Position numbers and translations under genes: made by a program. Source: Myxococcaceae bacterium (GTDB lineage Bacteria > Myxococcota > Myxococcia > Myxococcales > Myxococcaceae). Taken from it: 30,659 nucleotides of DNA. The notes under the pieces were generated by a model. That model did not search any database. It was not told the DNA's origin and saw nothing but the letters and a program-made list of their open reading frames with translations. This document shows, one piece after another, positions 1,161 to 26,129 of the stretch (the first letter of the stretch is position 1; each line of letters starts with the position of its first letter). The stretch lies in NCBI GenBank assembly GCA_044230055.1, contig JBGART010000083.1, forward strand, positions 1 to 30,659. Reading direction: 5' to 3'.

Positions 1161-1542
1161 TCGCCTTTCGTACTTTCGTTCCTACGGGCTACCCACCTTG
1201 TTGGGTGGGCGGCCCGGCAGATCTCCGTGGGTAAGCTGCGACAGATTCTGTGGCCGGGCCGTCGCCAGTACACCGGCACTTCGAAATGGAAATTGGGTTT
1301 CGTCGCCGGTCGCCGACTCACCCAGTGCCGATGCCTTAACGGCGCTTCACTCTCGTTCGACTCGTCCACACACCTATGACTTCCATCGGACGCAACTCTC
1401 GCGAGCCCCCTTCCCCATTGCTGAACCTCTACAAGCGTCCGGCGTGCCACGCTTCCCGCCTGCGCCCTTGTCTCTTTGGTGTCGGGTTCCCTCCATCAGG
1501 GCCCCGTCGTCACTTCCTTTCTGCCGCGCGTGCCACGCGCAC
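1..1542 (-). mobile_element. Group II intron (likely class C-like), 5' portion. Intron RNA domains I-III would be about 1161-1542 and the ORF lies in domain IV. The 3' end (DV/DVI) is outside the window.
   Basis: The minus-strand sequence at 1542 reads 5'-GUGCGCG..., matching the group II 5' consensus GUGYG. That position is ~380 nt upstream of the RT ORF start, which fits DI-DIII length for compact bacterial introns. It lies directly 3' of a palindromic hairpin (the repeat arm at 1543-1583), the hallmark insertion context of IIC introns. Confidence 0.6.
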
Positions 1543-6024: not shown

Positions 6025-6101
6025 CTGGCAGCGGATCGATGGATTCGAACCATCACCTCGAGATTAACGTTCTCGCGCTCTACCGATTGAGCTGGATTCG
6101 C
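6025..6101 (-). tRNA. tRNA gene or tRNA-like sequence, anticodon GTT (Asn) by position, with non-canonical features.
   Basis: Minus-strand read: gcgaatc-ca-GCTCaatcggtaGAGC-g-CGAGA-acGTTaa-TCTCG-aggt-GATGGttcgaatCCATC-gatccgc-t. The D-arm is canonical (G18G19) and the T-arm perfect (GGTTCGAATCC). Acceptor stem pairs 6/7 (A4:C69 mismatch). C at position 8 and C at position 33 (both normally U). No encoded CCA. Confidence 0.55.
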
Positions 6102-7908: not shown

Positions 7909-9291
7909 TTATTTTTGTGACAGCGCTGCGCTGCTTTCATTCGCACTCCAGCTCAAGTCGACTTCAACAGGCACCGCGCGTGTGGATTGGCTCATCACTG
8001 AGCGCAATCCGAGCGTAGAGATTACGGTGGAGGCCGCCTCTTCACCGGAGCGCACGGCGCCCTCGACGCCAGGGAGCGCGAGGTAGTCCCCAGCGAGGAT
8101 GACCGGATGGCGGTGGGCGCGCCGCGCTGCGAGCTGCGAGAGCCATCCTTCATAGAAGAGCGGCATCGCCTCGGCAATCTGAACAACCGACGACTTCGAC
8201 GGAGCCAGCGCGCGACCCAGCAGCTTCTCCGTTTCGGCCAGCAGCGTGTCCCTCACCACTGCTTTGGACTCCGACAGCAGGCGCGGCGCGGCCCCGACAG
8301 AGGCGATGGTCTCCAGCCCGCCCTTTCCGACAGGCACCTGTGAGGTCCCTTTCGCTTCGACGGCCGCCACCCAACCCAGTGGCGCGTTCGGGCCGAACGG
8401 AATGGCGCAGCGGATACCCACCGGCGCGTCCAGGCATTGATGGAGCTTCACCGTCGGTTGGTAGCGCGCGCGCCGCACCAGGCTGAGCTCCGGGTGGTCC
8501 GAGGGGAGCATCGCCGCCGCGGCGGGCCCCGGGACGGCCATGACCGCCATCTGTGCGTCGAGCACCGCGCCGTCCTGCAGCGTCACGCGCACGCCAGGCC
8601 CCGCCGCCAAGACCTTCGCCACCGGCGAGGAGGGCCGGAAGTCCAGCCCGCGCGCGACGGATTCCCACAGCCGCCCGAGGCCGCCCTTGAGGCAGAGGGT
8701 CTTCAGGCCCGCCACGTGGACCGCTTCAAGCAGCGCCCAGGCGCGCGAGGTTTCGGTCGCCGGCAGCAGCGTGATGCTCTCCAGGACCGGCCGCAGCAGC
8801 GCGTCCACGAACTGCTCGCCCAACGCCCGCCGGAAGAACGCGTCGGCGCTCTCGTCGTCGAAGCGCGCCGCCCGGTGGGGATGCTCCCAGGAGAGGAACG
8901 GGAGCGCCCAGAGGCCCTTCGCGCCGAAGGCCAAAGCGCGCAGCCGCGCTCGCAGGCTGAGCAGCGGCGTCCGGAGGAACCGGGCCAAGGTCAACGGCAA
9001 GGGGAAGCGCTGCCCGTCCCGCCAAAGCTCGATGTCCTGGAAGGGGTAGGGCACCAGCTCGCCGGTGAGCCCCTGCCCCGCAATGAGCGCCAGCGTGCGC
9101 CGGTTGAAGGACGCGATGAAGACCGCGCCGCGGTCGAAGCGCCACTCACCAACGCGGTCGTAGCCGGACCTGCCGCCGGGCGCCGCGGCGCTCTCCAGCA
9201 CCACCACCCTCGCCCCGTGCTGGGTGAGCTTCACCGCGGCCGCCAGCCCCGCCGGGCCGCCACCAATCACCACCACGCGCCTGTCACCCAT
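7909..9291 (-). CDS. FAD/NAD(P)-dependent oxidoreductase of the amine-oxidase/phytoene-desaturase/protoporphyrinogen-oxidase superfamily.
   Basis: N-terminal Rossmann dinucleotide motif MGDRRVVVIGGGPAGLAAAVKLTQHGARVVVLESAAAPGGRS. Length 460 aa. The start overlaps the upstream gene stop (operon). The C-terminal ~40 aa run into the low-GC region and may be an over-extension. Confidence 0.75.
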   Translation of the reverse strand: MGDRRVVVIGGGPAGLAAAVKLTQHGARVVVLESAAAPGGRSGYDRVGEWRFDRGAVFIASFNRRTLALIAGQGLTGELVPYPFQDIELWRDGQRFPLPLTLARFLRTPLLSLRARLRALAFGAKGLWALPFLSWEHPHRAARFDDESADAFFRRALGEQFVDALLRPVLESITLLPATETSRAWALLEAVHVAGLKTLCLKGGLGRLWESVARGLDFRPSSPVAKVLAAGPGVRVTLQDGAVLDAQMAVMAVPGPAAAAMLPSDHPELSLVRRARYQPTVKLHQCLDAPVGIRCAIPFGPNAPLGWVAAVEAKGTSQVPVGKGGLETIASVGAAPRLLSESKAVVRDTLLAETEKLLGRALAPSKSSVVQIAEAMPLFYEGWLSQLAARRAHRHPVILAGDYLALPGVEGAVRSGEEAASTVISTLGLRSVMSQSTRAVPVEVDLSWSANESSAALSQK

Positions 9292-12598: not shown

Positions 12599-13762
12599 TT
12601 AGAAGTAGAGCCGAATCTGCAGGTGCCCCATCCTCGGGACCGAGCCGAGCTCACCCGCGCCGACGCTTACCATCCCTCCCGCGGCGACGGTGGTGTTCTG
12701 GTCAAAGCTCCACTCCAGCTCTGGCACCACCAGGCCAGAGCCGTCCGTCAGGTTGGCGATGACCACCAGGTTCGCCGTGAGCAGCGCGCCCAGCTCGTAG
12801 CTGACGGCCGCGCCCGCGTAGAAGCGCCCGACCAGGGCCAGCTCCCCCGACTGCCAATCCAGGCGGCGCCGGACGTCTGCGTAGCCGGCGGGCGTCAGCG
12901 CACCGGCGCGGCTGTAGTGCAGCTCCGCGGTGACGGTGAGCCCCGGCCGCAGCGTGTGCTGCGCGCCGACGGTGGCCCGCAGCAGCGGAATGCGCGAGGG
13001 CGGCTCCTCCACTTCTGAGCCGTCCTGCCGCGCCCGCCAGAACCCCTCCGCGTAGAGCGACGCGCCGCCCACGTCCCCGGAGACATCCACTGCCACCGCC
13101 GGCGACGTGCCGGAGACGCCGGCGTACGCCGCGAGGTCCACGCCCGGGACGCTCACCCGGGCGCGGCCCAGCAGCGCGCCCTGGCTCAGGTAGCGGCGGT
13201 GGCCCACCGCGTACACCTCCAGCTCCACCTGCTCGCCCACCGGCGCAGTCAACCGCACCGCGTCCACGCCGGTCTTGAACTCCCGGTCCAGCGCTGCGGG
13301 GTGGAACGGCGCGAAGAGGTCCGACGCGGCGAACAGCCGCGCGCTGCCGTGGCCCAGCGCCTGACGCCCCACCCGCAGCGTCGCCGCCCCCACCGCGAGC
13401 GTCAGCATCAAGCGGTCCAGGTTCTGGTCCAGCGCGAAGCTGGAGGTGCGCACAATCTGCCGTGGCGCATCCACCAGCCGCAGGGCGGTGTGAACCGAAG
13501 GCGCTGCTTGCAGCGGGAAGACCGCCGACTGGAGCGCGTAGGCCAGCTCGAACGCGCCGTCCTCGCCGCTGACTTTGAGCTCCGCGCGCAGGCCCTGCTC
13601 CACCGCAGCCTGCGCCGGCGCGTCCGGCCCCGCGGGCGCGAGGTAGAGCGTGAGCACCTTGAGCCGCCCGCCGAAGGTGGCGGTGCGCTCGGCCCCTGAG
13701 AGCTCGAACGCGAAGGCGGCCCGGGACGCGAGCAGCAGCGCGAGCCACGCGGCCCGCCTCAT
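12599..13762 (-). CDS. Outer-membrane beta-barrel protein (signal peptide, C-terminal aromatic residue), last gene of the export operon.
   Basis: MRRAAWLALLLASRAAFA signal. Alternating amphipathic beta-strand pattern. C-terminal ...HLQIRLYF. The start overlaps the stop of the upstream ABC ATPase gene. Confidence 0.6.
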   Translation of the reverse strand: MRRAAWLALLLASRAAFAFELSGAERTATFGGRLKVLTLYLAPAGPDAPAQAAVEQGLRAELKVSGEDGAFELAYALQSAVFPLQAAPSVHTALRLVDAPRQIVRTSSFALDQNLDRLMLTLAVGAATLRVGRQALGHGSARLFAASDLFAPFHPAALDREFKTGVDAVRLTAPVGEQVELEVYAVGHRRYLSQGALLGRARVSVPGVDLAAYAGVSGTSPAVAVDVSGDVGGASLYAEGFWRARQDGSEVEEPPSRIPLLRATVGAQHTLRPGLTVTAELHYSRAGALTPAGYADVRRRLDWQSGELALVGRFYAGAAVSYELGALLTANLVVIANLTDGSGLVVPELEWSFDQNTTVAAGGMVSVGAGELGSVPRMGHLQIRLYF

Positions 13763-14472
13763 CGCCGCTCGTCTGCCTCAACCCTCCCGTCGTGGAGCGT
13801 CACCCGCCGGGACGCGGCGGCCATCACCCGCGGGTCGTGCGTGGAGAAGATGAACGTCGTCCCCAGGCGCCGGTTGAGGTCCACCATCATCTCCACGAGC
13901 GCATCCCCGGTCTTGCTGTCGAGGTTGGCGGTGGGCTCATCCGCCAGCACCAGCGCGGGCTTCGGGGCGATGGCACGCGCCACCGCCACGCGCTGCTGCT
14001 GCCCGCCGGAGAGCTCGTTCGGACGGCGGTGCAGCTTGTCGCCCAGCCCCACCTGCTCCAGCGCGTGCGAGGCGCGCTCCCTCCGCTCCTTCTTCTTCAC
14101 GCCCTGAATCCACATCACGTACTCCACGTTCTCCAGGACGCTCATCACCGGCACCAGGTTGTAGGCCTGGAAGACAAAGCCGATGCGGTCTCTCCGCAGC
14201 AGGCTGAGCGCGCTCTCCGGCAGGCGGGTGAGGTCCTTCCCCTCGAGGACGACGGCGCCCTCACCCGGGCGGTCCAGCGCACCCACCAGGTGCAGCAGCG
14301 TGGACTTGCCGGAGCCCGAGGGGCCGGCGATGGCCACCAGCTCCCCCGGCGCCACCCGGAGCGACACCCCGTTGAGGGCCCGGACGGTCTCGCTGCGCGA
14401 GGTGTAGTGGCGGCTGACGTCCCGAAGCTCGACGACGTTCTGCGGGGCGACCATGACGGCTCCCTCCTCCAT
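13759..14472 (-). CDS. ABC transporter ATP-binding protein (LolD/MacB-NBD/FtsE-like).
   Basis: Walker A GPSGSGKST, ABC signature LSGGQQQRVAVARA, Walker B LVLADEPTANLD, H-loop THD. ATG at 14472 overlaps the permease stop (ATGA). Confidence 0.85.
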   Translation of the reverse strand: MEEGAVMVAPQNVVELRDVSRHYTSRSETVRALNGVSLRVAPGELVAIAGPSGSGKSTLLHLVGALDRPGEGAVVLEGKDLTRLPESALSLLRRDRIGFVFQAYNLVPVMSVLENVEYVMWIQGVKKKERRERASHALEQVGLGDKLHRRPNELSGGQQQRVAVARAIAPKPALVLADEPTANLDSKTGDALVEMMVDLNRRLGTTFIFSTHDPRVMAAASRRVTLHDGRVEADERR

Positions 14473-15698
14473 CAAGCGGGATTGAGCGCTTCCACCGGCC
14501 GCAGGCGCGCGGCCCGCACCGCGGCGAAGAGCCCGGTGAGCGCGGTGAGGCCGGCGAACAGCGGCGCCAGCGTGAGCGCGTGCGCGGCCTTCGGCCGGAA
14601 CAGGATGGCGTCCTTCACGTAGACGCCGGAGAACTCCATGCCTTCGATGGGCATGCCCCAAATGGCGAACGGCGCACACAGCGCGAAACCCAGCGCGCAG
14701 CCGGCCGCCGCCCCCAACAGGCCCAGCGCGGTGGACTCGCACAGCAGCAGCGCAGCCAGCCGCGCGGGCGAGGTGCCCAACGCGCGCAGGACACCGAGCT
14801 CGCGCAGCCGCTCCGCGAAGGACATCCGCAGGGTGTTGACGATGGAGAAGCTCGCCACACCGAAGACGGCCAGCGCCAGCAGGTAGATGAGGTTGCGCTG
14901 GAACTGGTACGCGGTCCACAGGAGCGCGTTGAGACGCTGCCACGGCGCCACCTCCACGTCCGGACCCAGCGCCCCGCTCAAGGGCAGCAGCGCAGCGTCC
15001 AGCACCGCCGGGTCCGTGTTGGGCCCCGCAAGCTTCAGCGCCACCTCGTGCAGCTCCCCGCCCTGCCCGCTCAAGGCGCCGGCCTGCGGGAGCGAGGTGA
15101 CGACGGCCTCGCGGTCCAGCAGCGCGTTTCCAGAGGCGATGAGGCCGCTCACCCTCACCAGAACGCTGCGCAGCTCGCCGGTGCGCGCGTCCGCCGCGGT
15201 GAGCACCAGCTTGTCGCCCACGCCCAGCTCCAACCGGGTGGCCAGCTCATGCCCCAGGAGCGCCTGGCCCTCACGGACCGGCCAGCTGCCGTGGAGCAGC
15301 TTCCGGTGGAAGAGCGTCACCTTCGGCTCCTCGGCAAGGTCCACGCCGATAACCTGCACGTTGGCGCTGCGGTCTCCCATCGCCGCCAGCGCCAGCACGT
15401 ACTGCCGCGGCGCCGCGGCGAGCACGCCCGGCGTGGCGCGGGCAGCTTCCAGCGCGCGGGGCCCGTCCGGAAGAACCCGCTCCTGCTCGCGCTCGGCGCG
15501 GTAGGCGCGATGGTGCAGCTGCGCGTCGCCCAGAAAACCTCCGGCGGAGACCTCCACCGCCTGGACGAAGAGCCCCTCGATGTAGCCGAGCAGGAAGAGG
15601 AAGAGCGCCAGGCCCAGGCCAATGGCGGACGCGGTGAGCAGCGTGCGCTGCCGCTGCCGCCACAGGTTGCGGAAGGCGAGCGTGAACATCCAGAGCAT
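14472..15698 (-). CDS. FtsX-family ABC permease (LolC/LolE/MacB-like, four TM with large periplasmic domain).
   Basis: N-terminal LAFRNLWRQRQRTLLTASAIGLGLALFLF and C-terminal FtsX block ...VASFSIVNTLRMSFAERLRELGVLRALGTSPARLAALLL... Confidence 0.8.
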   Translation of the reverse strand: MLWMFTLAFRNLWRQRQRTLLTASAIGLGLALFLFLLGYIEGLFVQAVEVSAGGFLGDAQLHHRAYRAEREQERVLPDGPRALEAARATPGVLAAAPRQYVLALAAMGDRSANVQVIGVDLAEEPKVTLFHRKLLHGSWPVREGQALLGHELATRLELGVGDKLVLTAADARTGELRSVLVRVSGLIASGNALLDREAVVTSLPQAGALSGQGGELHEVALKLAGPNTDPAVLDAALLPLSGALGPDVEVAPWQRLNALLWTAYQFQRNLIYLLALAVFGVASFSIVNTLRMSFAERLRELGVLRALGTSPARLAALLLCESTALGLLGAAAGCALGFALCAPFAIWGMPIEGMEFSGVYVKDAILFRPKAAHALTLAPLFAGLTALTGLFAAVRAARLRPVEALNPA

Positions 15699-15703
15699 GG
15701 GGC

Positions 15704-16903
15704 CTACGTCTCCTTCATCGCGTGAAGCGGAGTCAGCCGCGCGGCGCGGAGCGCGGGCCAGAGGCTGGCGAGCAGCCCGCCTACCAGCAGCACCAGCGGA
15801 TAGAGGAGGTTCCCCTCCGCGGTGGCCAGCCCCTGCACGGTGTGGAAGACGACGCCGGCAATCTCCATCGGCTCATCGCCTATCGGAACTTGAAGGCCAT
15901 TCATCGCGGTGCCCAGGAGCGCGCCCACCGTCACGCCTCCGGCCGTGAGGAAGAAGGCCTCCCAGAGGATGAGGCCCACCACCTGGCGGGGTGAAGTCCC
16001 TAGCGCACGCAGGATGCCCAGCTCGCGCGTCCGCTCGAAGACGGACATCAGCAGCGTGTTGACCACGCCCACCGCGATGATGGCCAGGAAGATGACCACG
16101 CCTGGCCGGTTCGCGCCGCGCTCGGTCCGGATGTAGTTGGCCAGCGCAGGCATCACCTCCGGCCAGCCCTGCAGCCGGTGTCCCTGCACCGAGGGCAGGC
16201 GCGTGAGGAAGGCCTCCAGCGCCGTGGGCTCATGCAGCCGGCCCACCACCCGGTGCGCGCGGTCCGGCAGCTCCAGGAGCTCTCGGGCGTCGGCCAGGGT
16301 CACGAAGGCCAGCGCGCTGTCCGCCTCGTCGGAGCCGGAGGTGTAGACGCCGCGGACGCGGAACAGCTGCGCCGCGACGGCGCCGTCCGCGGCCTGACCG
16401 AGGAAGCTCACCTCGTCCCCCACCTTCACGCGCAGCCGCGCGGCCACGCCGCGGCCTAAAAGGATGTCCGCGCCGGCGCCGGGCGTCAGCCACGCGCCCT
16501 CCTTCACCGCGGCGGGGATGCGCGTCACCTCCGGCTCGCGCACCGCGTCCACGCCGATGAGGCGGACGCCGACAGACCTGTGGCCGGCGGAGACCAGCCC
16601 GGGCGCCTCCACCCGCTCGGTCACCGCGCGGACCTCGGGCGCCTCCCGCAGCGCCTGCGCCACGGCGCCCGCGCCGCGCACCGTCTTGTTCACGCCCGGG
16701 CGCGCGTTGAAGTCGCCCGCCATCACCTGGAAGTGACCGTGAAAGCCCTGCGTCACCCCGTCGGTCAGCAGCGCGAAGCTGCCCTCGTTGACGCCGTTTA
16801 TCCACACCAGAAAGGCGGTGCCCAGCACCACCATCGCCACGGTGAACGCCGAGCGGCGGGTGTTGCGGCGCAGGTTGCGCAGCGCCAGCCCTGCGGTCGC
16901 CAT
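15704..16903 (-). CDS. FtsX-family ABC permease (second LolC/E-like paralogue).
   Basis: MATAGLALRNLRRNTRRSAFTVAMVVLGTAFLV... and C-terminal ...VGVVNTLLMSVFERTRELGILRALGTSPRQVVGLIL... The ORF-track ORF (to 17374) over-extends; ATG at 16903 abuts the upstream gene stop. Confidence 0.8.
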   Translation of the reverse strand: MATAGLALRNLRRNTRRSAFTVAMVVLGTAFLVWINGVNEGSFALLTDGVTQGFHGHFQVMAGDFNARPGVNKTVRGAGAVAQALREAPEVRAVTERVEAPGLVSAGHRSVGVRLIGVDAVREPEVTRIPAAVKEGAWLTPGAGADILLGRGVAARLRVKVGDEVSFLGQAADGAVAAQLFRVRGVYTSGSDEADSALAFVTLADARELLELPDRAHRVVGRLHEPTALEAFLTRLPSVQGHRLQGWPEVMPALANYIRTERGANRPGVVIFLAIIAVGVVNTLLMSVFERTRELGILRALGTSPRQVVGLILWEAFFLTAGGVTVGALLGTAMNGLQVPIGDEPMEIAGVVFHTVQGLATAEGNLLYPLVLLVGGLLASLWPALRAARLTPLHAMKET

Positions 16904-17649
16904 CACCCGCCCCCGGAGGTGAGCGCGGAGAGCGTGAAGAGGGACTCGCTGGCCGGCGTGTCGAACTCCAGCGTGTCGTAGAGGAGCGTCGTCTGGTGGC
17001 CCTGCTTCGTGAGCGGCGTGACCACCAGCTTGTGCGGCGTGAGCCGCTCCCCCACCTTCCTCACGTCGGAGAACGTCAGGCGGCGCGCCAGGCGGCCCTT
17101 GTCGTCGTGGTACTCGCAGGTGACCGGGACCAGCGTCCGCGCGTCCACGCAGGCCACCACCCGCTCCCAGGCGACCGCGGCGTCCGGCCGGGCCTTGAGC
17201 TCCACGCAGGTCTGCCCTTCGGGCGCGGATGGGAGGGTGGTCCCCTCGTAGTCGACGCTGTACTTCACCGCCTGGACGAGGTCGTCGTGGGTGAAGTCGC
17301 TCCCCATCCAGGAGCTCATCAACATCGAGGGCGGGATGCGCACCGTCTTGCCAATCTTCGGCAGGTAGTTCCACATCTGGGCGCCCTTCTTCAGGCTGGC
17401 AGTGCCGCTCTCCTTCTTCGGCGCCAGAATCCTCACCAGCGCGTCATCCGCGCCGCGCGACCAGAAGTCCAGGCTGAGCTCGCGCTGGAAGTCCGGCGCC
17501 TGCACCTGCATGCGCATCCGGCCGTGGCTGGTCCGGGACCGGAACAGCTCATCCAGCCGCGCGCTCACCGCCTTCGCCTTCTCATCCGGCGCCGCCTGCG
17601 CCGCGACGCCCGCCACCAGCAGCGCCAGCACCCATCCCCGGCTCCTCAT
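16903..17649 (-). CDS. Periplasmic LolA-like / outer-membrane lipoprotein-sorting (DUF-type) protein commonly partnered with FtsX/ABC exporters.
   Basis: Signal peptide MRSRGWVLALLVAGVAAQA; ~230-aa beta-rich soluble protein; conserved partner position. The start ATG overlaps the TfuA stop (ATGA). Confidence 0.6.
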   Translation of the reverse strand: MRSRGWVLALLVAGVAAQAAPDEKAKAVSARLDELFRSRTSHGRMRMQVQAPDFQRELSLDFWSRGADDALVRILAPKKESGTASLKKGAQMWNYLPKIGKTVRIPPSMLMSSWMGSDFTHDDLVQAVKYSVDYEGTTLPSAPEGQTCVELKARPDAAVAWERVVACVDARTLVPVTCEYHDDKGRLARRLTFSDVRKVGERLTPHKLVVTPLTKQGHQTTLLYDTLEFDTPASESLFTLSALTSGGG

Positions 17650-18977
17650 CCGTTCGCCCCTCCGTACTCGCGCAGCAGCTCCTCCAGCAGCGCCTCACCG
17701 CTCTCGAACCCCAGCTCCCGCGCGTGCAATTCGACGGACCCGCCGACGGTCCGCACCTGCCGCTGGTAGGTCTCCAGCGCGCGCGCCAGTCGCCGCTCCC
17801 GCGCTCCAGGCTCCTCGGCCGCGGGTGCCGGGCGCTCGCGCAGGTGCGCAAGCGTGCGCCCGAACGTCCCGCGCCGCTTGAGCTCCTGCGACAGCAGCTG
17901 CGCCAGCCGCCCCTCGCCGCGCAGCGCCGCCTGTACCTTGTCGAAGAGCACCTCGAAACGCAGGACTTCGCGCAAGCCCGCGCCCGACAGCTGATTCTCC
18001 TCCAGCCAGCGCCGCGTGGCCTGCGCGCTCACCAGGCCTCGCGCCCGACGGAAGCGCTCACCGGCCGCCGCCACCTCCTGCTCGCTGACGGCAAGCCCCC
18101 TCGCCGCCGCCTCCAGCTCCAGCAGCTGGAGCAGCACCGTCGAGCGCAACAGCTCCTCGCCCTCCGGCCGCACGCGCACGCCCCGCCAAAGCGCCGCCGC
18201 ATCCACGTCTGCAGACGGCGCGTCCGGCAACGCGAGCTGCTCCGGTGAGGTGGAGCGGACCAGCTTGTGCCAGAAGCGCGTCTGCTCGAAGTGAAAGCCC
18301 GGCGCGGGCGCCAGCGCCGGCAACCCTTCAGCGAGCCGCTGCAACAGCGCCACCGCGTCGCTCCGCTTGAGGTTCGGCCGGTGGGCGAGGACGAAGGCGC
18401 GCAGCCGCGCGCGCTCCGCACCCGGGATGGCCAGCGCTTCGCCCAGCCCCTCGCTCCACAGCGCGGGCCAGCTGCGCTCCGGGTAGTGCAGCCCCTTCGC
18501 CGCCTGCTCCAGCAGCGTCCGCGTCCGGGCGGAGATGTCTCCGGCCTGCTCCGCCAGCCGCAGCCCATCCCGCAGGTTGACCATCGCGTCGGAGAGCGGC
18601 ACGTAGCCGTCCTCCGCGGGGCCGTGGACCACGGTCACCTCGTCGTCGTCCTCCAGCACCCCGTCGCGGTAGGCCTCGAAGATGCGCCCCACGCCCTCCA
18701 TCCCGAAGGCACAGAGCTCCGCGGCGCGCAGCGCCCCCATGCTGGAGGCCCCCAGTACGCGCACGCCGCTGGCCAGCGCGAAGAGCAGCTCCTTGTGCCA
18801 GACCGCCGGGCGCTGTTCAAAGAAGCCGTCGATGAGCGCGATGACGGACGGCTTGCGCGTGGCCACCAGCTGGTAGACGTCCCCCATCGCCGCTGGGGGC
18901 AGGAAGTGGGCCGTGGGGAGCAGGGCCTTCGCCTCGACGGGCGGCAGGGAAGGACCCAGGAAAACCCAGACGCTCAC
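17646..18977 (-). CDS. TfuA-like protein (YcaO partner for peptide backbone thioamidation) with ~200-aa C-terminal extension.
   Basis: N-terminus (M)SVWVFLGPSLPPVEAKALLPTAHFLPPAAMGDVYQL...IALIDGFFEQRPAVWHKELLFALASGVRVLGASSMGALRAAEL...GVGRIFEAYRDGVLEDDDEVTVVHGP, a near-textbook TfuA domain. GTG start overlaps the YcaO stop. Confidence 0.8.
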   Translation of the reverse strand: MSVWVFLGPSLPPVEAKALLPTAHFLPPAAMGDVYQLVATRKPSVIALIDGFFEQRPAVWHKELLFALASGVRVLGASSMGALRAAELCAFGMEGVGRIFEAYRDGVLEDDDEVTVVHGPAEDGYVPLSDAMVNLRDGLRLAEQAGDISARTRTLLEQAAKGLHYPERSWPALWSEGLGEALAIPGAERARLRAFVLAHRPNLKRSDAVALLQRLAEGLPALAPAPGFHFEQTRFWHKLVRSTSPEQLALPDAPSADVDAAALWRGVRVRPEGEELLRSTVLLQLLELEAAARGLAVSEQEVAAAGERFRRARGLVSAQATRRWLEENQLSGAGLREVLRFEVLFDKVQAALRGEGRLAQLLSQELKRRGTFGRTLAHLRERPAPAAEEPGARERRLARALETYQRQVRTVGGSVELHARELGFESGEALLEELLREYGGANG

Positions 18978-20209
18978 GCGCGCGCCTCCTGCGTTGCGGA
19001 GGCCTTGAGGTATGCGTTGACGCGTGGGCCCGGCTGGTAGTCGCTGGCGAAGAGCCGCGCCTCCAGCCCCGGGACCACTACCTTCACCACGGGCACCTTC
19101 AGCTCCGGCCGGGAGAGGTTCACCACCGCTGCTTGCGCCAGGCCGATGCGCCGCAGCGCCTGCACGAGGACCTGGAGGTCTCCCTCGAAGGTGTCCGTCG
19201 CCAGGCTGGCGCGCGCGCGGAACGCGGCGGCCGGCGCCGGGGTGCGGATGCGCTCAATGCGGGCGGCCAGGGCGGCGTCACGCGTCCAGGCGCGGTACTT
19301 CGAGTAGAAGAGGTCATCCCGGCTCCCGGAGACGAAGGCCAGCCGGCTCTGCACCGCTTCGCTGAGCGCGCGCATCAGCGCCACCGCGGGGGAGAGGTGA
19401 CAGCCGTAGCCTCCGAAGATGCCCAACCTCCGCCAGCGCGGCCGGTCGGATCCGTCGAAGAGCTCGCAGGCGTACGCCGGGATGCCGGTGTCCGAGGTGA
19501 CGTCCCAGATACCCACGTCGACGTCCGCCAGCCGCATGCGGCGCAGCAGCTCCAGACAGCCGGCGTCATCCACCGTCGCCGGGTCCACCTGCCGCGTCTT
19601 CGCTTCCTCGGCGCTCTGGTACTCCCAGAGCGTGATGGCGTCCCGCTCGATGAGCTCGCACAGGCCGTGGACGGTGGCCTCCACCAGGTGATTGCCAGAG
19701 GCCAGCCCGTTGCTGGAGGGCGGCACGACCGGGCGGTAGCCCGCAGGCCAGACGAAGCTGACGCTCACCGCGTCGTGCGGCACCCAAACGGACTCGCCGC
19801 GCAGGAGGTCCTCTCCCTCCACCCAGAGGCAAGGGCCGGCTTGGGGACCCAGCCCCAGCTCCAGCACCCGGGAGGACTTCGCCAGCAGCGCAGGCTGTTC
19901 GTGCCGCAAGGGCAGCGCCAGGTGTTCGCCGTGCCAGACCTCGATGGACTCCATCAGGGCGGACACCTTGGCGGCGAGAGGGTCCAACCCCTTCCCCTGC
20001 GACGTCGCCAGCGAGCGCGAGTTGGGCCGCACCGCCACGTAGACGGGCAAGCCAATCCGGTCCAACCCCGTCACGTTCGCCAGCCGCGTGATGCCCAGCG
20101 GGCCCATCAGCGGCGAGAAGCGCGCGAAGGTCTCCTCCGGGCTGCACGCGCGGTGCGTCCCGTTGAGGAAGCGCTTGGGCGGATGCGGTGGCTCGCCCCA
20201 GAGGTTCAT
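18974..20209 (-). CDS. YcaO-domain protein (ATP-dependent peptide backbone amide activation: cyclodehydratase/thioamidase type).
   Basis: LNGTHRACSPEETFARFSPLMGPLGITRLANVTGLDRIGLPVYVAVRP...LCELIERDAITLWEY (YcaO ATP/Mg-binding ExxERD-type motifs). ATG overlaps the stop of the upstream HO-like gene. Confidence 0.85.
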   Translation of the reverse strand: MNLWGEPPHPPKRFLNGTHRACSPEETFARFSPLMGPLGITRLANVTGLDRIGLPVYVAVRPNSRSLATSQGKGLDPLAAKVSALMESIEVWHGEHLALPLRHEQPALLAKSSRVLELGLGPQAGPCLWVEGEDLLRGESVWVPHDAVSVSFVWPAGYRPVVPPSSNGLASGNHLVEATVHGLCELIERDAITLWEYQSAEEAKTRQVDPATVDDAGCLELLRRMRLADVDVGIWDVTSDTGIPAYACELFDGSDRPRWRRLGIFGGYGCHLSPAVALMRALSEAVQSRLAFVSGSRDDLFYSKYRAWTRDAALAARIERIRTPAPAAAFRARASLATDTFEGDLQVLVQALRRIGLAQAAVVNLSRPELKVPVVKVVVPGLEARLFASDYQPGPRVNAYLKASATQEARA

Positions 20210-20928
20210 GCGGTCTGCCGGTAGACGTCGTGACCCATCCGCCCCCAGGTCTCCAGGGTGGCGCGCGCGTGGAGCAACACCGCCTCCTGGTCCGCCGGGT
20301 CCGTGAAGCCGCGCAGCCGCCGCCGGGCCGCGTCCATGTGACCCACGTCCGACTCCGCGTGGCCGCCGAAGAAGCTCACCGCGTTGCGGATGTTGGGGAG
20401 CTGCGAGTGGGCGATGAGGTTCTTCACAATCCGTCCCGCCACCTTCTCCCCGAGCGACTCCAACACGTAGGCAATGCCCCAGACGCCCACCGGCGTGGGA
20501 CTGAGCGCGGCCGCCCAGAACATGGCGATGTACGCTTTGGCCGCCGGGCCGGGCTGGCTGCGCTCCAGCGCCTCGCGGGAGACGCCCAGCTCACCCAGGT
20601 CCGAGGCCAGCCACGCGTCATGCCCGGACTCTTCGTCACCGTGCGCGGCCAGCTCCTTCGCCATCTGCTGGAGGTAGGGCGTCTTGAAGCGCGCCCAGCG
20701 CGCGTCCGCGAAGCGCGCATCGTCGCTGCCGTAGAGCCGCATGGACTCGCCGGCGGCGCGGAGCATGGCGGGGACGTGCTTGGCGCCCTGGCGAATCTCG
20801 TCATAGATGCCGATGAGCTGCGCGCGCGTGGGCGTGCCGCGCAGGAGCGGCCCGAAGACCGGGTCCTCCTCCAGCTGGGCCGCCAGCTGCGCGCTCAGCG
20901 CTTCCAGCTGTTCAATCAAGTCGCTCAT
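20206..20928 (-). CDS. Haem-oxygenase-like di-iron enzyme / 'iron-containing redox enzyme family' (TenA/PqqC/CADD-like fold) protein.
   Basis: ~240 aa, all-helical. Recurring E/H/D ligand pattern (...DEESGHDAW..., ...FFGGHAESDVGHMD...). Family assignment is from memory of this protein family and is less certain than YcaO/TfuA. Confidence 0.55.
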   Translation of the reverse strand: MSDLIEQLEALSAQLAAQLEEDPVFGPLLRGTPTRAQLIGIYDEIRQGAKHVPAMLRAAGESMRLYGSDDARFADARWARFKTPYLQQMAKELAAHGDEESGHDAWLASDLGELGVSREALERSQPGPAAKAYIAMFWAAALSPTPVGVWGIAYVLESLGEKVAGRIVKNLIAHSQLPNIRNAVSFFGGHAESDVGHMDAARRRLRGFTDPADQEAVLLHARATLETWGRMGHDVYRQTA

Positions 20929-21010
20929 GGTGTTTCGCCTTCGGGTGACGGGTGGCTTCGAAGCACGGCGCGGGCGACGTGGAGCTCGCCCGCGCCATGC
21001 CGCTACAGGC

Positions 21011-21148
21011 GTCAGTCGTTGATGAGACAAGCGTTGCCAATCAGGCACGCGTCGCCCACCGGGTCGCTGCTGATGAGGCAGGCCGACTCGGCCTTGCTCT
21101 CACCGGCGAGCTCTTCCGCCGTCTTCACGTCGAGATCCTTGATGTCCA
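21011..21148 (-). CDS. Candidate RiPP precursor peptide, 45 aa: MDIKDLDVKTAEELAGESKAESACLISSDPVGDACLIGNACLIND. Acidic helical leader + core with three ACLI repeats.
   Basis: Found by hand translation of the 270-bp gap between the terpene synthase and the HO-like gene. ATG at 21148 is preceded by AGAGAGGAGGGGAAGAGAAAAA (GGAGG RBS). GC3-rich codons are consistent with host usage. TGA stop at 21011-21013. Not in the ORF track (too short). Confidence 0.65.
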
Positions 21149-21200
21149 TTTTTTCTCTTCCCCTCCTCTCTTGGGCCAGGGTCGTCACGGGTGGCCGCCC

Positions 21201-22106
21201 TCAAGAGAACAGGGCACCGGGGACGGTGTCGAAGCGAGCCGTTGCCCATCGGCCCCAGTCGTAAGAACCGCGCATGATGTGTCGCAAGACCTCGGTGAGC
21301 CGTCGGACCGCGGCGTCCGCGGCGCCGCCGAAGCGGGGCAGCGCCTTCTCCCGCTCCAGGAAGAGCTCCACCAATCCATTGGAGACGCGGGCCACCCCCT
21401 CCAGCGCCCGCGTAGAAGAGCAGCCGCGCTCCGCCTTGAGCATCCGCACCACGTTGTTCTCCCGGCAGGTGTCCGGTTTCATGGAGAAGGCCAGCACGTC
21501 GCTGGTGAGCCGCACTGCCAACGCGGCCAGCCGCTTGAGCCGCGCGAGCGCCGGGTGACACCGCAGCTGCGGCGGCACGTCGATGCCCTTGAGCACCTCG
21601 ACAATCCAGACGCAGGGATAGATGGCCACCGCGGACGCCTCCATCTCCAGGTACTGCGCGAAGGACGGGACGCGGGACAGCCGCCGGTTCTCCGCCTCCC
21701 AGCGCCACGAGTCCTGCATCTCCTCCACCAGCACATCGAACTCCTCGAGCGCTGGCCGCTCGCAGAACGTCCCCAGCCGCTGGCGGAGGTCGCCGAAGGC
21801 GGCCCCCAATGCCGCGTCCATCACCCGGGGCTGCCTCGCGCACGACGTCCCATCACAACGGGCGTCGATGGCGAAGACCCAGGCCAGGTAGTCCGCGAGG
21901 AGCTGGAGCCGCTCCGTGGGACCGTCGGGGTACATCATCCCCCCGAGCACATGGACCGCGAACCGGTCGAACTCCCCGACTGCTCCGGCGTCGAGCACGC
22001 CCATCTGTTCCAGCCATTGCAGCATCGGCTGGCGGGTGTGCTCACACCGGACGTTGGACGCAGGCGGGAAGGGATAGAAGAGGTCTGGAAGGCGCGCCGT
22101 CTGCAC
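21201..22106 (-). CDS. Class I terpene synthase (bacterial terpene cyclase family) with degenerate first metal-binding motif. The start is uncertain (GTG 22106, or upstream 22220 overlapping the neighbouring gene).
   Basis: LPDLFYPFPPASNVRCEHTRQPMLQWLEQMGVL...LADYLAWVFAIDARCD aligns with the ...ADYSAWFFVWDDRHD region of bacterial cyclases; here the DDxxD motif is D-A-R-C-D. An NSE-like region RENNVVRMLKAE lies ~135 aa later, and the C-terminus has a W...R(F) motif. Confidence 0.65.
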   Translation of the reverse strand: MQTARLPDLFYPFPPASNVRCEHTRQPMLQWLEQMGVLDAGAVGEFDRFAVHVLGGMMYPDGPTERLQLLADYLAWVFAIDARCDGTSCARQPRVMDAALGAAFGDLRQRLGTFCERPALEEFDVLVEEMQDSWRWEAENRRLSRVPSFAQYLEMEASAVAIYPCVWIVEVLKGIDVPPQLRCHPALARLKRLAALAVRLTSDVLAFSMKPDTCRENNVVRMLKAERGCSSTRALEGVARVSNGLVELFLEREKALPRFGGAADAAVRRLTEVLRHIMRGSYDWGRWATARFDTVPGALFS

Positions 22107-22125
22107 GGGTTCCTGACCTCGCCCG

Positions 22126-22593
22126 CTACTGGCGGCGTCCCCAACCGGTGAAGTTGACGTCCTTGTTGCCCACGCTGACGAAGCGGATTTCCCGCCCGCC
22201 GTCGTCGAGCACGAACTCAATCTTCGAGGCTTCGCCCTCGGCGGTGATGCAGTCCATCTTGCCGAGGCCGCCGCGGCGCAGCTCGTACTTGCAGACGAAC
22301 GCCTCGCGGGCGCTCTGGCCGCCGGGCGCGCTGATGACGAACTCGCCCGTCACGCGGCTGATGCCGTCCGCGTGCAGCCGCCCAATCTCGAAGATGCGGG
22401 CGCCGTTGGCGAGGACACCCTCCACCGAGACGCCGTAGGCGCCCTTGAGGTCATGCGGCTTGAAACAGTCGTTGGCGTTGTTGTTGAGCGCCTGCGTCTG
22501 GGCGGACAGCTCCTCGCCAGGCGTGGCCGCCATCAACAGGGCAGCGAGGGGAACCAGGACGGCCACCGAGGACAGCGCATAGAGCTTCTTCAT
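22126..22593 (-). CDS. Secreted hypothetical protein (~155 aa, signal peptide, beta-rich; calycin/nitrobindin-like guess only).
   Basis: ATG 22593 gives MKKLYALSSVAVLVPLAALLMAATPGEEL... The ORF track's longer version uses an upstream alternative start. Confidence 0.5.
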   Translation of the reverse strand: MKKLYALSSVAVLVPLAALLMAATPGEELSAQTQALNNNANDCFKPHDLKGAYGVSVEGVLANGARIFEIGRLHADGISRVTGEFVISAPGGQSAREAFVCKYELRRGGLGKMDCITAEGEASKIEFVLDDGGREIRFVSVGNKDVNFTGWGRRQ

Positions 22594-22639: not shown

Positions 22640-24139
22640 TCACTGGAATGTCTGAACAGAGCGCCCGCTGGGGAGCGACGTCGGGATGAGCTGCCTGAGC
22701 CGGACGGGGCTGGCGCGTGGGTCCGCCAGGCCGTTGGAGACGAACGCCACCAGCGCGTTGAGCTCCGCGTTGGTGAGCGACACCGGCTGACCCATGCGGG
22801 AGTCCAGCGTGGTGAGGACAATCTCGTTGACCGGGGTCTGGTTTCGGCAGTCCGAGGGCAGGCCCAGCTTGTTGAACTTATGCAGCGAGTCGTGGACATC
22901 CAGGTGGTGCCGAATGGCGCCCGCCAGGCTGTCGAACGCGCCGTTGTGGAAGTAACGCGGGCTGTAGGCCAGGTTGCGCAGCGGCGAGGTCCGGAACTTG
23001 TAGCGGTCCGCGGCGGTCCCGCTGACCTGCTCCAGCCCGAAGTCCTCATTGCCGCCGGGCCCATCCCAGGTCACGTTGGTGAGCGAGGGGAAGACCGGCG
23101 GGACGCCGATGTTGTGCTGGGCGAAGTCGCTGAACATCTCGTTCGCCTCACCCGAGACCGCATGGCAGCCAACGCAGCCCGCCTTGCCGAAAAAGAGCAG
23201 CGCGCCGCGCTTCTCCTGCTGGGTGAGCGCGTTCTCGTGGCCGCGGGCGAAGCGGTCAATGGGCGCGTTCGCGTACGTCTGGCTGAGCTCGAACTCGGCG
23301 ATGGCCGCCGCCAGCATCTCGTACGTGATGGGGCCGCCGTGCTTGACGATGGAGTAGACCCGGCCGAACAACTTCCGGTACTCCGCGTTGTTGTTCAGCC
23401 GGGCGATGACGTCGGTCCGGACGACGTCGTGGTCGGTGGAGGCGTTCAGCCCGGCCATCTCCGGCAGCTCCGTCGGCGGTATGAAGGCCTGTGCCGTGAG
23501 CAGCGTGGGCATGGCGTCCAGCGAAGAGCCCTCCGGCGAGGGGAAGAGGAAGCCCTGGCTGTTGTCGAACGGGTCCCCGGACTTGGCGGCGAACCGCGAG
23601 TTCCACATCAGCGTCGGGTAGAACGCGTTGTTGGCGATGCCCGGCGCGCGGCGCTGGTTGCGCGGGCCGACGCGGGAGCTCCCCACCTTCTGGTTGTTGT
23701 CGATGCCAATGGCGATGGCCTGCGAGTCACCCCACCCCGCGGTGGGCGCGTGACAGCCGGAGCAGGAGTTGTCGTCCTTGAGCGCCAGCAGACTGTCGAA
23801 GAAGGCCAGCCGTCCCACGTTGGCCAGGTTCGCGTTCAGCTTCCTGCCCAACCGCGGCTCCAGGGTGGCTTGAACCCGCCCGGTGAAGCCGTACTGCTTA
23901 AGGATGACCTTCAAGGCGACGTCGAGCGGGTCCTTGGCGCGCGCGTTGGAGCGGTCCCGCCCAGGCGCCTCGTGCGCCTCTCCGTCGGTCAGCGCTTCGG
24001 GGAGCAGGTCCAGCTGGGCCAGCTCCGCGCTGAGGGCGTCGCTGTCCTCTGACAGCTCGTCCGGCGCCTGCAGGCCCGGGCCGCAGCCCGCCGTCAGCAT
24101 GGCCGCGAAGAGCGCGGCGGTGGTTTTGAATTGAGACAT
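22640..24139 (-). CDS. Di-haem cytochrome c peroxidase (CCP/MauG family), lipoprotein.
   Basis: Two CxxCH haem motifs (CSGCH, CVGCH); lipobox LTAGCG; ~500 aa, typical of the family. Confidence 0.8.
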   Translation of the reverse strand: MSQFKTTAALFAAMLTAGCGPGLQAPDELSEDSDALSAELAQLDLLPEALTDGEAHEAPGRDRSNARAKDPLDVALKVILKQYGFTGRVQATLEPRLGRKLNANLANVGRLAFFDSLLALKDDNSCSGCHAPTAGWGDSQAIAIGIDNNQKVGSSRVGPRNQRRAPGIANNAFYPTLMWNSRFAAKSGDPFDNSQGFLFPSPEGSSLDAMPTLLTAQAFIPPTELPEMAGLNASTDHDVVRTDVIARLNNNAEYRKLFGRVYSIVKHGGPITYEMLAAAIAEFELSQTYANAPIDRFARGHENALTQQEKRGALLFFGKAGCVGCHAVSGEANEMFSDFAQHNIGVPPVFPSLTNVTWDGPGGNEDFGLEQVSGTAADRYKFRTSPLRNLAYSPRYFHNGAFDSLAGAIRHHLDVHDSLHKFNKLGLPSDCRNQTPVNEIVLTTLDSRMGQPVSLTNAELNALVAFVSNGLADPRASPVRLRQLIPTSLPSGRSVQTFQ

Positions 24140-24178: not shown

Positions 24179-24616
24179 TCAGCCGCCCTCAGAGCAGCCC
24201 GGAAACGGATTGGTCTTGCAGGAGAGGGGCTCGCAGCCGCAGCCGAACGGGTTCTCGCAGTGGCAGTACGCGTTGTTCCCGCACTGGTTCGCCGGGCCGT
24301 TGGCGACGCAGGGCATGGCGCAGAAGAAGCTGAAGTGCTCGCCCTCCATGTTCTCGATGGAGGAGCAGTAGATGGCCTTGCCGTTGTTCGCGCAGTCAGA
24401 GTGCGTCTCGCAGAACTTCCCCACGCCAAGGTTGTTGCCCTTGTCTCCCCAGCGGCCGCAGCAGGACTCGGAGATGGGACCGCAGTAGTCGATGGCCGGC
24501 TTGGCGAGCGCGGCGCTGCTCTCGTTGACGTGCTCTGAGTCGGCGAGCGCCTGCTCGACACAGCCAGAGGTGAGGAGGACTGCGGCGAACGCTGAAACGG
24601 CAATGAGATGTCTCAC
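24179..24616 (-). CDS. Cys-rich secreted lipoprotein (145 aa, ~18 Cys), function unknown.
   Basis: MRHLIAVSAFAAVLLTSGC lipoprotein signal. Cys-dense mature part (...YCGPISESCCGRWGDK...CETHSDCANNGKAIYCSS...FCAMPCVANGPANQCGNNAYCHCENPFGCGCEPLSCK...). Confidence 0.55.
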   Translation of the reverse strand: MRHLIAVSAFAAVLLTSGCVEQALADSEHVNESSAALAKPAIDYCGPISESCCGRWGDKGNNLGVGKFCETHSDCANNGKAIYCSSIENMEGEHFSFFCAMPCVANGPANQCGNNAYCHCENPFGCGCEPLSCKTNPFPGCSEGG

Positions 24617-24764: not shown

Positions 24765-26129
24765 CTACTGCCCAGACCCCACGGCGCCGAGCTCCGCCCC
24801 ACCCAGCTCGCGCAAGAGCTCTCGCGCCCGCTCCACCTTCACGTGGCCCACCTTCACCAGCAGGTCCGCCACCTTCTCCACCCAGTCGCCACGCGCGCCG
24901 GCGGTGACGGCGACGCAGCGGGCGTGCAGCGCCATGTGCCCCTGCTGGATGCCGACGGAGCCCAGCGCCCGCAGCGCGGCGAAGTTCTGCGCCAGGCCGA
25001 CCGCGGCGAAGACCATCGCCAGCTCGCGGGCGCTCTGCGCACCGAGCAGCTTGAGGCCAACCTGGACGCCCGGGTGGGCCTGGATGCTGCCGCCCACCAT
25101 GCCCAACGCGAGCGGCAGCTCGAGCTCCCCCACCAGCGAGTCACCGTCCAGCCGCCAGGTGGAGAGCGGCCGGTAGCAGCCCGTCCTGCTCGCGAAGGCA
25201 TGCGCTCCGGCCTCGATGGCGCGCCAGTCCTGCCCCGTGGCCAGCGCCACCGCGTCAATGCCATTCATGACGCCCTTGTTGTGGGTGGCCGCGCGGTAGG
25301 GGTCCGCCTGCGCGAAGCGGCTGGCCTGCACCACACCCCGGGCAATCTCCTCTCCCGACCGTTCGAAGGCGGCCAGGTCCCGCACGGGAATCTGGCAGCG
25401 GGCGCGGGCCAGCCGGCGGTCCGCGTAGTTGGAGAGGATGCGCAGGTGCACCTCGCCACCCGTGAGCGCCTCCACCAGCGGGGCCACGCCCTCGGACATC
25501 GTGTTGATGAGGTTCGCGCCCATCGCCTCCTGCGTGTCGATGAGCAGGTGCACGATGAGCAAAGGCTCCGCGTCCGGCCCCTCCGGCGCGGGGAGGATGC
25601 GGACCTCCACGTCCTTCGCGCCGCCCCCGCGCTGCACCATCCGGGGATGGAAGCTGTTGGCCAGCGCCAGCAGCTCCTCGCGCGCGGACAGCAGGCGTTC
25701 GCGGGCGGCCAAAGGGTCTCCGTAGCTGGAGACCTGCACCTGGCCAATCATGAGGGAGGCGTCGGCCTCCGCGACGAAGCCGCCCGCGGCGCGCACCACC
25801 TTCGCCGCCAGCGAGACCGCGGCGATGACCGAGGGCTCCTCCACCACCATCGGGACGACGTACTCCCGGCCGTTGACGATGAAGTTGAGGCCCAGGCCCA
25901 GCGGCAGGCTGAAGGTGCCCAGGGCGTTCTCAATCATCTGGTTCGCCACCTCCGCGCCGAGCGAGCGCTCTCCGGAGAGCTGCTGCAACTCAACAGGCGT
26001 GAGGCGAAACATCCGGCCGACGCGCGCCAAACGCTCCGCGCGGTCGAGCTTGTGAAATCCCTTCATACGAGATGTCACAGCACCGGCGACGCCATTCTTG
26101 TCTTCAGACATGACTTCGCCCCGCTCCAT
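24765..26129 (-). CDS. Class II HMG-CoA reductase (mevalonate pathway).
   Basis: ...EVANQMIENALGTFSLPLGLGLNFIVNGREYVVPMVVEEPSVIAA..., ...DTQEAMGANLINTM..., ...ATHNKGVMNGIDAVALATGQDWRAIEAGAHA... (conserved class II HMGR blocks). Confidence 0.85.
   Translation of the reverse strand: MERGEVMSEDKNGVAGAVTSRMKGFHKLDRAERLARVGRMFRLTPVELQQLSGERSLGAEVANQMIENALGTFSLPLGLGLNFIVNGREYVVPMVVEEPSVIAAVSLAAKVVRAAGGFVAEADASLMIGQVQVSSYGDPLAARERLLSAREELLALANSFHPRMVQRGGGAKDVEVRILPAPEGPDAEPLLIVHLLIDTQEAMGANLINTMSEGVAPLVEALTGGEVHLRILSNYADRRLARARCQIPVRDLAAFERSGEEIARGVVQASRFAQADPYRAATHNKGVMNGIDAVALATGQDWRAIEAGAHAFASRTGCYRPLSTWRLDGDSLVGELELPLALGMVGGSIQAHPGVQVGLKLLGAQSARELAMVFAAVGLAQNFAALRALGSVGIQQGHMALHARCVAVTAGARGDWVEKVADLLVKVGHVKVERARELLRELGGAELGAVGSGQ

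Follow-up and report, generated by a model that had tools for sequence, protein, structure and literature searches.

Gene Content of the Locus

The stretch of DNA considered here, which we will refer to as the window, comprises positions 1 to 30,659 of contig JBGART010000083.1 from a Myxococcaceae bacterium (assembly GCA_044230055.1), and the feature under study is a small gene on its minus strand that encodes a peptide of 45 amino acids (aa) in which the tetrapeptide ACLI occurs three times. This gene is located 51 nt 3' of a gene for a terpene synthase-like (TS-like) protein and 83 nt 5' of a set of genes, on the same strand, for a heme-oxygenase-like di-iron oxidase (HDO), a YcaO protein and a TfuA protein. 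It is a candidate for the precursor gene of a RiPP (a peptide that ribosomes make and that is modified after its translation), and its features, together with those of the surrounding genes, are summarized in Table 1.

Table 1. Positions of the putative precursor gene, its sequence elements and the neighboring genes in the window
Feature	Position	Strand	Details
3-Hydroxy-3-methylglutaryl-CoA (HMG-CoA) reductase	24765-26129	minus	
TS-like protein	21201..22220	minus	PF19086, 8e-24; maximal open reading frame; likely start GTG 22106, 301 aa
Ribosome-binding site GGAGG	21162..21166	minus	12 nt 5' of the peptide ATG
Putative precursor peptide gene	21012..21149	minus	45 aa plus stop (46 codons); leader aa 1-22, 21084-21149; repeat region aa 23-45
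Core unit 1, ACLI	21072..21083	minus	GCC TGC CTC ATC
Core unit 2, ACLI	21039..21050	minus	GCG TGC CTG ATT
Core unit 3, ACLI	21021..21032	minus	GCT TGT CTC ATC
GC-rich hairpin, 16 bp	20962..21001	minus	between precursor stop and HDO start; folding energy -42.4 kcal/mol, z = -3.6; equalled by 0 of 200 shuffles
HDO	20206..20928	minus	240 aa; PF14518, 4e-13
YcaO	18974..20209	minus	411 aa; PF02624, 5e-74
TfuA	17646..18977	minus	443 aa, including a C-terminal extension of ~220 aa; PF07812, 1e-45
LolA-like periplasmic carrier	16903..17649	minus	PF17131, 1e-43; translationally coupled to TfuA
Two MacB/FtsX permeases (15704-16903, 14472-15698) and ATP-binding cassette (ABC) ATPase (13759-14472)	13759..16903	minus	PF02687, PF12704, PF00005
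387-aa protein	12599..13762	minus	signal-peptide-like N-terminus; no family match; last gene of the coupled operon
770-aa protein	9300-11612	minus	short-chain prenyl diphosphate synthase at the N-terminus; the remaining ~440 C-terminal residues match nothing in Pfam, NCBIfam or PDB
HpnE-like or phytoene-desaturase-like flavin oxidase	7909-9291	minus	

Coding Evidence for the Repeat-Containing Peptide

Translation of positions 21149..21012 of the minus strand gives the peptide MDIKDLDVKTAEELAGESKAESACLISSDPVGDACLIGNACLIND, the anatomy of which can be written as MDIKDLDVKTAEELAGESKAES-ACLI-SSDPVGD-ACLI-GN-ACLI-ND, where MDIKDLDVKTAEELAGESKAES is a leader of about 22 residues and the linkers between the units are short and polar or acidic. 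A preliminary description of this DNA, made by a reader who had only the letters and a list of open reading frames (ORFs), had given exactly this 45-aa sequence with its three ACLI repeats and had placed it at 21011-21148, a frame that contains stops and lies one base off from the real ORF. The GGAGG ribosome-binding site that it noted is present, and the host-like codon bias that it described is borne out by the GC content of the three codon positions (0.59/0.41/0.85), as the neighboring genes exhibit the same pattern with third-position (GC3) values of 0.85-0.96; the plus-strand ORFs that overlap the peptide gene (20188-21264 and 20952-22151) fail the GC3 criterion. The ORF was also said to fill a gap of 270 bp in a translationally coupled operon. 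This gap measures 272 bp, from the TS stop at 21201 to the HDO start at 20928, and stop and start codons overlap at every junction from the HDO gene to that for the 387-aa protein. The description of the ORF as unannotated was true only for the track available to that reader, since gene callers had called it and an identical 45-aa protein, derived from NCBI and without a name, is present in the public protein collection. Likewise, the Cys residues are not regularly spaced as had been claimed, the spacing being 11 and then 6 residues.

An alternative reading of 58 aa, starting from a GTG at 21188, was considered and rejected: the ribosome-binding site precedes the ATG at 21149, and homologues start at its equivalent. 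The ATG is preferred in particular because the closest homologue (P0124, described below) begins at the equivalent Met (MEIKDL). None of the models in Pfam or NCBIfam matched any of the five peptides of the family discussed below, the best E value being 0.06 for one member.

The three-fold occurrence of ACLI is not an artefact of composition. When 40,460 stop-free segments of 30 residues from all six frames were compared, this locus was the only one in which a complex 4-mer (i.e., one with at least three different residues) was found three times. Additionally, when the three units are aligned at the DNA level, 4 of the 12 columns are variable and all four correspond to third codon positions, a distribution for which the probability by random placement is 1/495.

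Homologous Putative Precursors in Other Lineages

Four other lineages, designated here L006/L008, L010/P0123, P0124 and P0125 (locus L020), carry a homologous small ORF, giving five groups with the window included. In all of these, a leader with the common pattern M..I.DL.V..A.EL.AG is followed by three to five cores of the form A-[C/G]-[L/F]-[I/V], which are flanked by small polar or acidic residues; M1, D5, L6, V8, A11 and the Ala of each core are invariant in the five lineages. The peptide P0124, which is 73% identical to that from the window, consists of the leader MEIKDLQVKSAQELAGETQADS and the cores ACLI-SNE-ACLI-GT-ACLI-NK, and P0125 (63% identical) of MEANNRDLQVKSAQELCEELASSES and ACLV-SD-ACLI-ES-ACLI-SD-ACLI-TDV. 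In L006 and L008, the leader MDGAFEIHDLKVSSAAELVAGANVSPQS precedes three or four copies of ACFVET, whereas in L010, from a Myxococcales metagenome-assembled genome, MFKIEDLRVQDAETIIAGEARGAET is followed by five AGF[I/V] cores; P0123 has the same leader and is otherwise identical to L010, with three such cores. P0124 and P0125 were recovered only by an exhaustive HMMER profile search of 1.84 billion representative proteins (E = 4e-11 and E = 3e-4, respectively); a word-indexed search with the window peptide alone returned only the peptide itself, and one with a four-sequence profile added only P0123.

The genomic context of these ORFs is also conserved. In L006, L008 and L010 the small ORF is found directly 5' of YcaO-TfuA-HDO, and in L020 the gene that directly follows it on the 3' side encodes an HDO with 59% identity to that of the window. 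In general, the homologous ORFs adjoin YcaO, a long TfuA or HDO, and all three of these on contigs of sufficient length; the precursor, YcaO, long TfuA and HDO constitute the only gene set common to the lineages.

The differences among these genes are of the kind expected from protein-coding sequences, as between-repeat differences are synonymous in both the window and L020, and all length differences among the homologues amount to whole codons or whole repeats. Absence of the ORF from related loci and frame-disrupting indels in its orthologues were the two outcomes that the preliminary description had named as speaking against a precursor; neither was observed, the ORF being present in the four other lineages and every difference being in frame. 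The repeats themselves, whose conservation it had proposed to check, are retained, but their number varies from three to five and the unit varies as A-[C/G]-[L/F]-[I/V]. Between near-identical loci the number of repeats changes in frame, 3 versus 4 in one case and 3 versus 5 in another. The polymorphic genes concerned are those at L006 595-738 and L008 485-646 (3 and 4 copies of ACFVET) and those at L010 5719-5898 and L012 294-437 (5 and 3 copies of AGFVES), and part of this polymorphism could be due to collapse of the 18-nt repeats during assembly. In L017, the ACFVE precursor gene is preceded, at a distance of about 1 kb, by an integrase/transposase (rve) gene (85-1125, minus strand), and given the presence of the latter this locus may have been rearranged or mobilized.

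In view of these observations, a chance ORF, with a non-coding spacer or an RNA element occupying the 272-bp gap, is hardly credible. Such a reading could appeal to the short length of the ORF and to the frequency of spurious ORFs in high-GC genomes, but it is effectively refuted by the conservation of the peptide in five lineages, and the synonymous-only variation between repeats, the in-frame indels, the ribosome-binding site and the coding GC3 also argue against it. The repeat pattern was absent from every other frame of the ~140 kb of locus DNA examined, and a scan of the gap against Rfam revealed no RNA family.

A literature search, in which the coverage of subscription journals was incomplete, found no paper on these cores, and the precursor family thus appears to be undescribed.

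The Predicted Modifying Enzymes

TfuA-paired YcaOs give rise to thioamides and not to thiazolines, and TfuA accompanies the thioamide-forming YcaOs in every characterized case of which we are aware. The best NCBIfam match of the window YcaO is to the model for the McrA-glycine thioamidation YcaO (TIGR03266), with a score of 223 bits that is below the 365-bit cutoff, while against the SagD cyclodehydratase model it scored 130 bits (cutoff, 219 bits). The nearest solved structure is that of the thioamide-forming MJ1094 (1.5e-34). To judge from its sequence, the window YcaO is closer to the thioamide-forming YcaOs than to the cyclodehydratases. Among 5.8 billion proteins, the nearest YcaO shows only 59% identity, and the window protein is therefore without close orthologues; small ORFs of the type described above were nevertheless seen when the surroundings of the mutually closest YcaOs were inspected.

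The genes for TfuA and YcaO are adjacent, with an overlap of 4 nt. TfuA has been described as a sulfide-delivering hydrolase (PMC13063428), and the solved structure 6xp8 spans only aa 5-215 of the window protein. The extension that follows is kept in relatives (alignment over aa 1-438), including those in clusters with other precursor types. It gave only weak matches, to SurA_N_3 and to TIGR04500 ('peptide maturation'), and it is possible that it represents a peptide-binding domain. The structural relatives of HDO are CADD-like proteins (3dde, 1rcw, and 8va9), and its orthologues, with 44-60% identity, are found in every related locus.

Comparison With Known Thioamide-Forming Systems

Thioamidated RiPPs are, to our knowledge, few in number, and thiovarsolin is the only multi-core example that has been characterized. 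It is also the closest known system to that of the window. In Streptomyces varsoviensis, the repeating precursor VarA is thioamidated by VarY (YcaO) and VarT (TfuA) and apparently dehydrogenated by VarO, which is assigned to PF14518 in the supplement of that study, and host proteases free N-acetyl-Ala-Pro(CS)-Arg from each VarA repeat (PMC6511847). The enzyme triad of YcaO, TfuA and a PF14518 protein is common to the two systems. In both, tandem cores whose number varies among family members come after a leader, neither cluster includes a dedicated protease, and the excised unit would in each case begin with Ala (or Gly). There are also differences between them. The repeats of VarA are 17 aa long with an APR core, whereas the units in the window family are of 6-11 aa with A-[C/G]-[L/F]-[I/V]. 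Genes for an ATP-grasp protein, an amidinotransferase and a major facilitator superfamily transporter are lacking from the window cluster (no domain of VarL, the ATP-grasp, or VarS, the amidinotransferase, was found among the window ORFs scanned), which instead contains the TS-like gene and a Lol-like ABC exporter. Lastly, the hosts differ, the window having ~70% GC with relatives annotated as Myxococcales, in contrast to the Actinobacteria.

The archaeal system that forms thioglycine in McrA (MJ1094, 6pe3/6peu; TfuA, 6xp8) provides the best sequence matches for the window YcaO and TfuA, and Gly, the residue modified there, is found at core position 2 in the sister clade L010/P0123. However, the window substrate is a small leader-bearing repeat peptide and not a folded enzyme subunit, the window TfuA has the extension noted above, and an HDO is added. 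The thioamitides (thioviridamide, thioholgamide) resemble the window system in the action of YcaO-TfuA on a ribosomal peptide and in having several identical backbone modifications per precursor. They differ from it in that enzymes forming aminovinylcysteine, His modification enzymes and a HopA1-like protein were not found in the window, in that the cores are not homologous, and in that thioamitides do not have a repeat cassette architecture. With the family described here, the enzyme triad of thiovarsolin would have another set of repeat-core substrates, unrelated to the first, and the natural variation of this family (Cys/Gly and Leu/Phe at defined positions, with three to five repeats) should make the substrate rules of TfuA-dependent YcaOs and PF14518 oxidases testable.

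Proposed Pathway and Alternatives to It

The small ORF is co-oriented with and adjoins the modifying enzymes, and across clusters it combines a conserved leader with a variable core, which are the features generally looked for in RiPP precursors. We consider it likely that it encodes the precursor of a YcaO/TfuA/HDO pathway with multiple cores, each of which would be thioamidated once. This agrees with the preliminary description, in which repeated units processed by the adjacent YcaO/TfuA were proposed, and the occurrence of a leader with three to five repeats beside YcaO/TfuA/HDO in four other lineages supports that proposal. Its view of the cores as iterative and centered on Cys holds as far as the repeated units are concerned, but not for Cys, which is replaced by Gly in the L010 clade, so that the enzymes common to these clusters cannot have Cys as their target in every case.

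We infer every chemical step of the pathway as follows. The leader would dock the peptide on the YcaO/TfuA pair, after which a single backbone amide per A-[C/G]-hydrophobic-hydrophobic unit would be activated by YcaO at the expense of ATP. A thiocarboxylated carrier would be the source of the sulfide supplied by TfuA, and each unit would thereby acquire one thioamide. The modified site is most likely the carbonyl of residue 2 (Cys in the window, Gly in the sister clade), a placement made by analogy because the thiovarsolin unit is A-P(CS)-R and the McrA product is a thioglycine. The di-iron PF14518 enzyme may then oxidize a side chain in the manner of VarO, host proteases would take off the leader and probably separate the units, and the coupled LolA-like protein and MacB-type ABC system would export the product.

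Several observations weigh against this proposal. Homology of the precursor to VarA was tested and rejected, as hhalign put the probability at about 0.1% (given as Prob 0.1) with E = 0.71 and the APR motif is absent, and the sole link between HDO and VarO is their common Pfam family, PF14518. A scan of the operon detected no recognizable leader-binding (RiPP recognition element, RRE) domain and no protease. Only five lineages were found, mostly on short metagenomic contigs. Moreover, in most homologues the linkers are of two residues, and release of tetrapeptides is not obviously easier than formation of one poly-modified peptide.

The last of these points bears upon a reading that departs from the proposed pathway solely in the final step of proteolysis, namely that the 23-residue C-terminal region is a single core with three identical modifications and only the leader is cut off. 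The two-residue linkers in P0125, L006 and L010 and the lack of a protease in the operon are consistent with it, and thioviridamide-type peptides are known to hold several thioamides in one core (PMC6511847). However, the number of repeats varies (3/4 and 3/5) in otherwise identical genes and so does the length of the linker (SSDPVGD versus SNE); such variation is what multi-core precursors of the cassette type show, among them VarA, in which a separate tripeptide arises from every repeat, and a single product is thus possible but in our opinion somewhat doubtful. It is much less probable that YcaO cyclodehydrates each Cys to form a thiazoline, as in thiazole/oxazole-modified microcins (TOMMs) or linear azol(in)e-containing peptides (LAPs). 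Cyclodehydratases do belong to the YcaO superfamily, the cores of three of the five lineage groups all contain Cys, and there is the sub-threshold SagD match noted above (130 versus 219 bits). Nevertheless, the same enzyme set in L010/P0123 is accompanied by a precursor with Gly in place of the Cys, Ser or Thr that TOMM/LAP cyclization requires, the operon includes neither the E1-like or Ocin-ThiF partner nor the FMN dehydrogenase of such systems, and the partner of YcaO here is TfuA.

The Terpene Synthase-Like Gene and a Possible Hybrid Product

The TS-like protein matches only PF19086 and the NCBIfam models for terpene cyclases, and it belongs by fold to this family. It does not, however, retain the canonical motifs of class I terpene cyclases (DDxxD, the NSE/DTE triad and RY). 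In comparison to the T-muurolol and 10-epi-cubebol synthases, DDQCD is changed to DARCD, NDxxSxxxE to SDVLAFSMK and RY to RF, so that the second Asp of DDxxD and all three residues of the NSE triad (S/A/K for N/S/E) are lost. Because these motifs are degenerate, the protein probably does not coordinate the usual trinuclear Mg cluster. In each of the three ACL[I/V] lineages, i.e., the window, P0124 and L020, the end of the TS-like gene is separated from the peptide gene by 29-51 nt. The order of genes on the P0124 contig is 388 aa - 160 aa - TS (318 aa) - peptide, and in L020 the first 130 bases encode ...MRASYDWGRWATTRY*, which matches the C-terminus of the window TS-like protein. In the contigs compared, the association of a TS-like gene with ACL[I/V] precursors is thus conserved.

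This conserved link to a protein with broken metal motifs, together with the presence nearby of HMG-CoA reductase and a prenyl diphosphate synthase, leads to a concrete hypothesis of a peptide-terpenoid hybrid, in which the TS-like protein would act as a peptide S-prenyltransferase on the CaaX-like Cys of each ACLI unit without cyclizing free terpenes, and the Lol-like exporter would handle lipidated thioamide peptides. We know of no enzyme of the terpene cyclase family that carries out S-prenylation and of no described bacterial RiPP pathway that combines backbone thioamidation with prenylation of Cys. A precedent is provided by ComQ and PalQ, enzymes with an isoprenoid synthase fold that prenylate RiPPs (PMC10853753); there also, a gene of the isoprenoid synthase superfamily is found beside a small precursor gene and the second metal-binding motif is degenerate. 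The resemblance of the cores to C-aliphatic-aliphatic-x, the loss of the NSE triad and of the second Asp of DDxxD, the conserved position of the TS-like gene, the occurrence of both isoprenoid genes within the same 30 kb, and the coupling of the LolA-like and LolCDE-like genes to TfuA are all in accordance with this idea. On the other hand, ComQ and PalQ act on Trp, which is absent from the window peptide, and they belong to other subfamilies (ComQ/polyprenyl synthases) than the PF19086 protein of the window. Further, the TS fragment of L020 retains RY, no TS gene was seen in the 2 kb upstream and 5 kb downstream of the Cys-containing ACFVE loci, and the terpene and RiPP clusters are possibly adjacent but separate. 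We therefore regard the hybrid as unlikely, yet if it were true, it would add a new activity to those of the terpene cyclase family. In a related myxobacterium, Vitiosangium cumulatum, antiSMASH has reported a 'Terpene/TfuA-related' region for which no associated biosynthesis is listed (PMC7321100), and this could be, but need not be, a locus of the type found in the window.

Hairpins and Other RNA Elements

Strong hairpins are found 3' of the precursor stop in all four lineages for which DNA is available (the window, L020, L006, and L010), with z values from -2.6 to -4.5, and their sequences are unrelated. Because a T tract is absent, the hairpin in the window is probably an attenuator or a structure that stabilizes the transcript. 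The sole terminator-like site in this region is on the plus strand and is at chance level. Elsewhere in the window, Rfam matches were obtained close to the contig's left end, for the D1-D4 domain of a group II intron (70 bits; 1238-1408, minus strand), and at 6030-6101 (minus strand), for a tRNA gene.

Flanking Genes and Other YcaO/TfuA Loci

The genes at 12599-17649 (minus strand), which are coupled to TfuA, have a Lol-like layout (LolA-like and LolCDE-like) attached to the putative RiPP operon, a layout not seen in the related loci within the flanks available for them. On the 5' side of the TS-like gene, the minus strand encodes a lipoprotein-like protein of 155 aa with no family (22126-22593), a lipoprotein of the di-haem cytochrome c peroxidase/MauG type (22640-24139) and a Cys-rich secreted protein of 145 aa (24179-24616). 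At the matching positions 5' of TS, the P0124 contig contains genes for proteins of 160 aa and 388 aa, the latter of which is cut.

Searches outside the family gave the following results. In genome contigs, the loci detected by a scan with YcaO were all distant, with 34-48% identity, and came from Actinobacteria and Clostridia; an ACLI-type peptide was present in none of them. The HDO-alignment scan of metagenomes yielded four contigs, all from the L006 organism, and tblastn of HDO against plasmids gave only relatives with at most 30% identity. YcaOs that were 52-56% identical to that of the window were excluded from the family on the basis of their cluster types, which were nitroreductase/M50, ThiF, paired 58-aa ORFs and a precursor of the nitrile hydratase leader peptide (NHLP) type. 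When the supplementary peptide tables of RiPPER were searched by motif, no repeat-core ACLI, ACFV or AGFV peptides were found, and a single-copy 'RAGFV' group from Actinobacteria, considered as a distant relative, found no support in the loci examined.

Some of the other loci contain small ORFs of interest in their own right. In Actinobacteria bacterium OK074 (L001 5728-5874, plus strand), a repeat-type small ORF, MSVESSSLKHEVKSAGAAVS-LKRDVKSVGVATC-LKRDVKSVGAAVAPR, whose sequence is unrelated to the ACLI family, immediately precedes a YcaO gene (48% identity to that of the window), a TfuA gene, an ATP-grasp-like ORF and other long ORFs. Candidate precursors are also seen in L018, where TfuA is followed by a tandem pair of 58-aa paralogues with many basic residues (8585-8761 and 8780-8956), and in L021, where a 101-aa nitrile-hydratase-leader-like peptide ending in GSGYTGVAICALYFWK (331-636) precedes YcaO.
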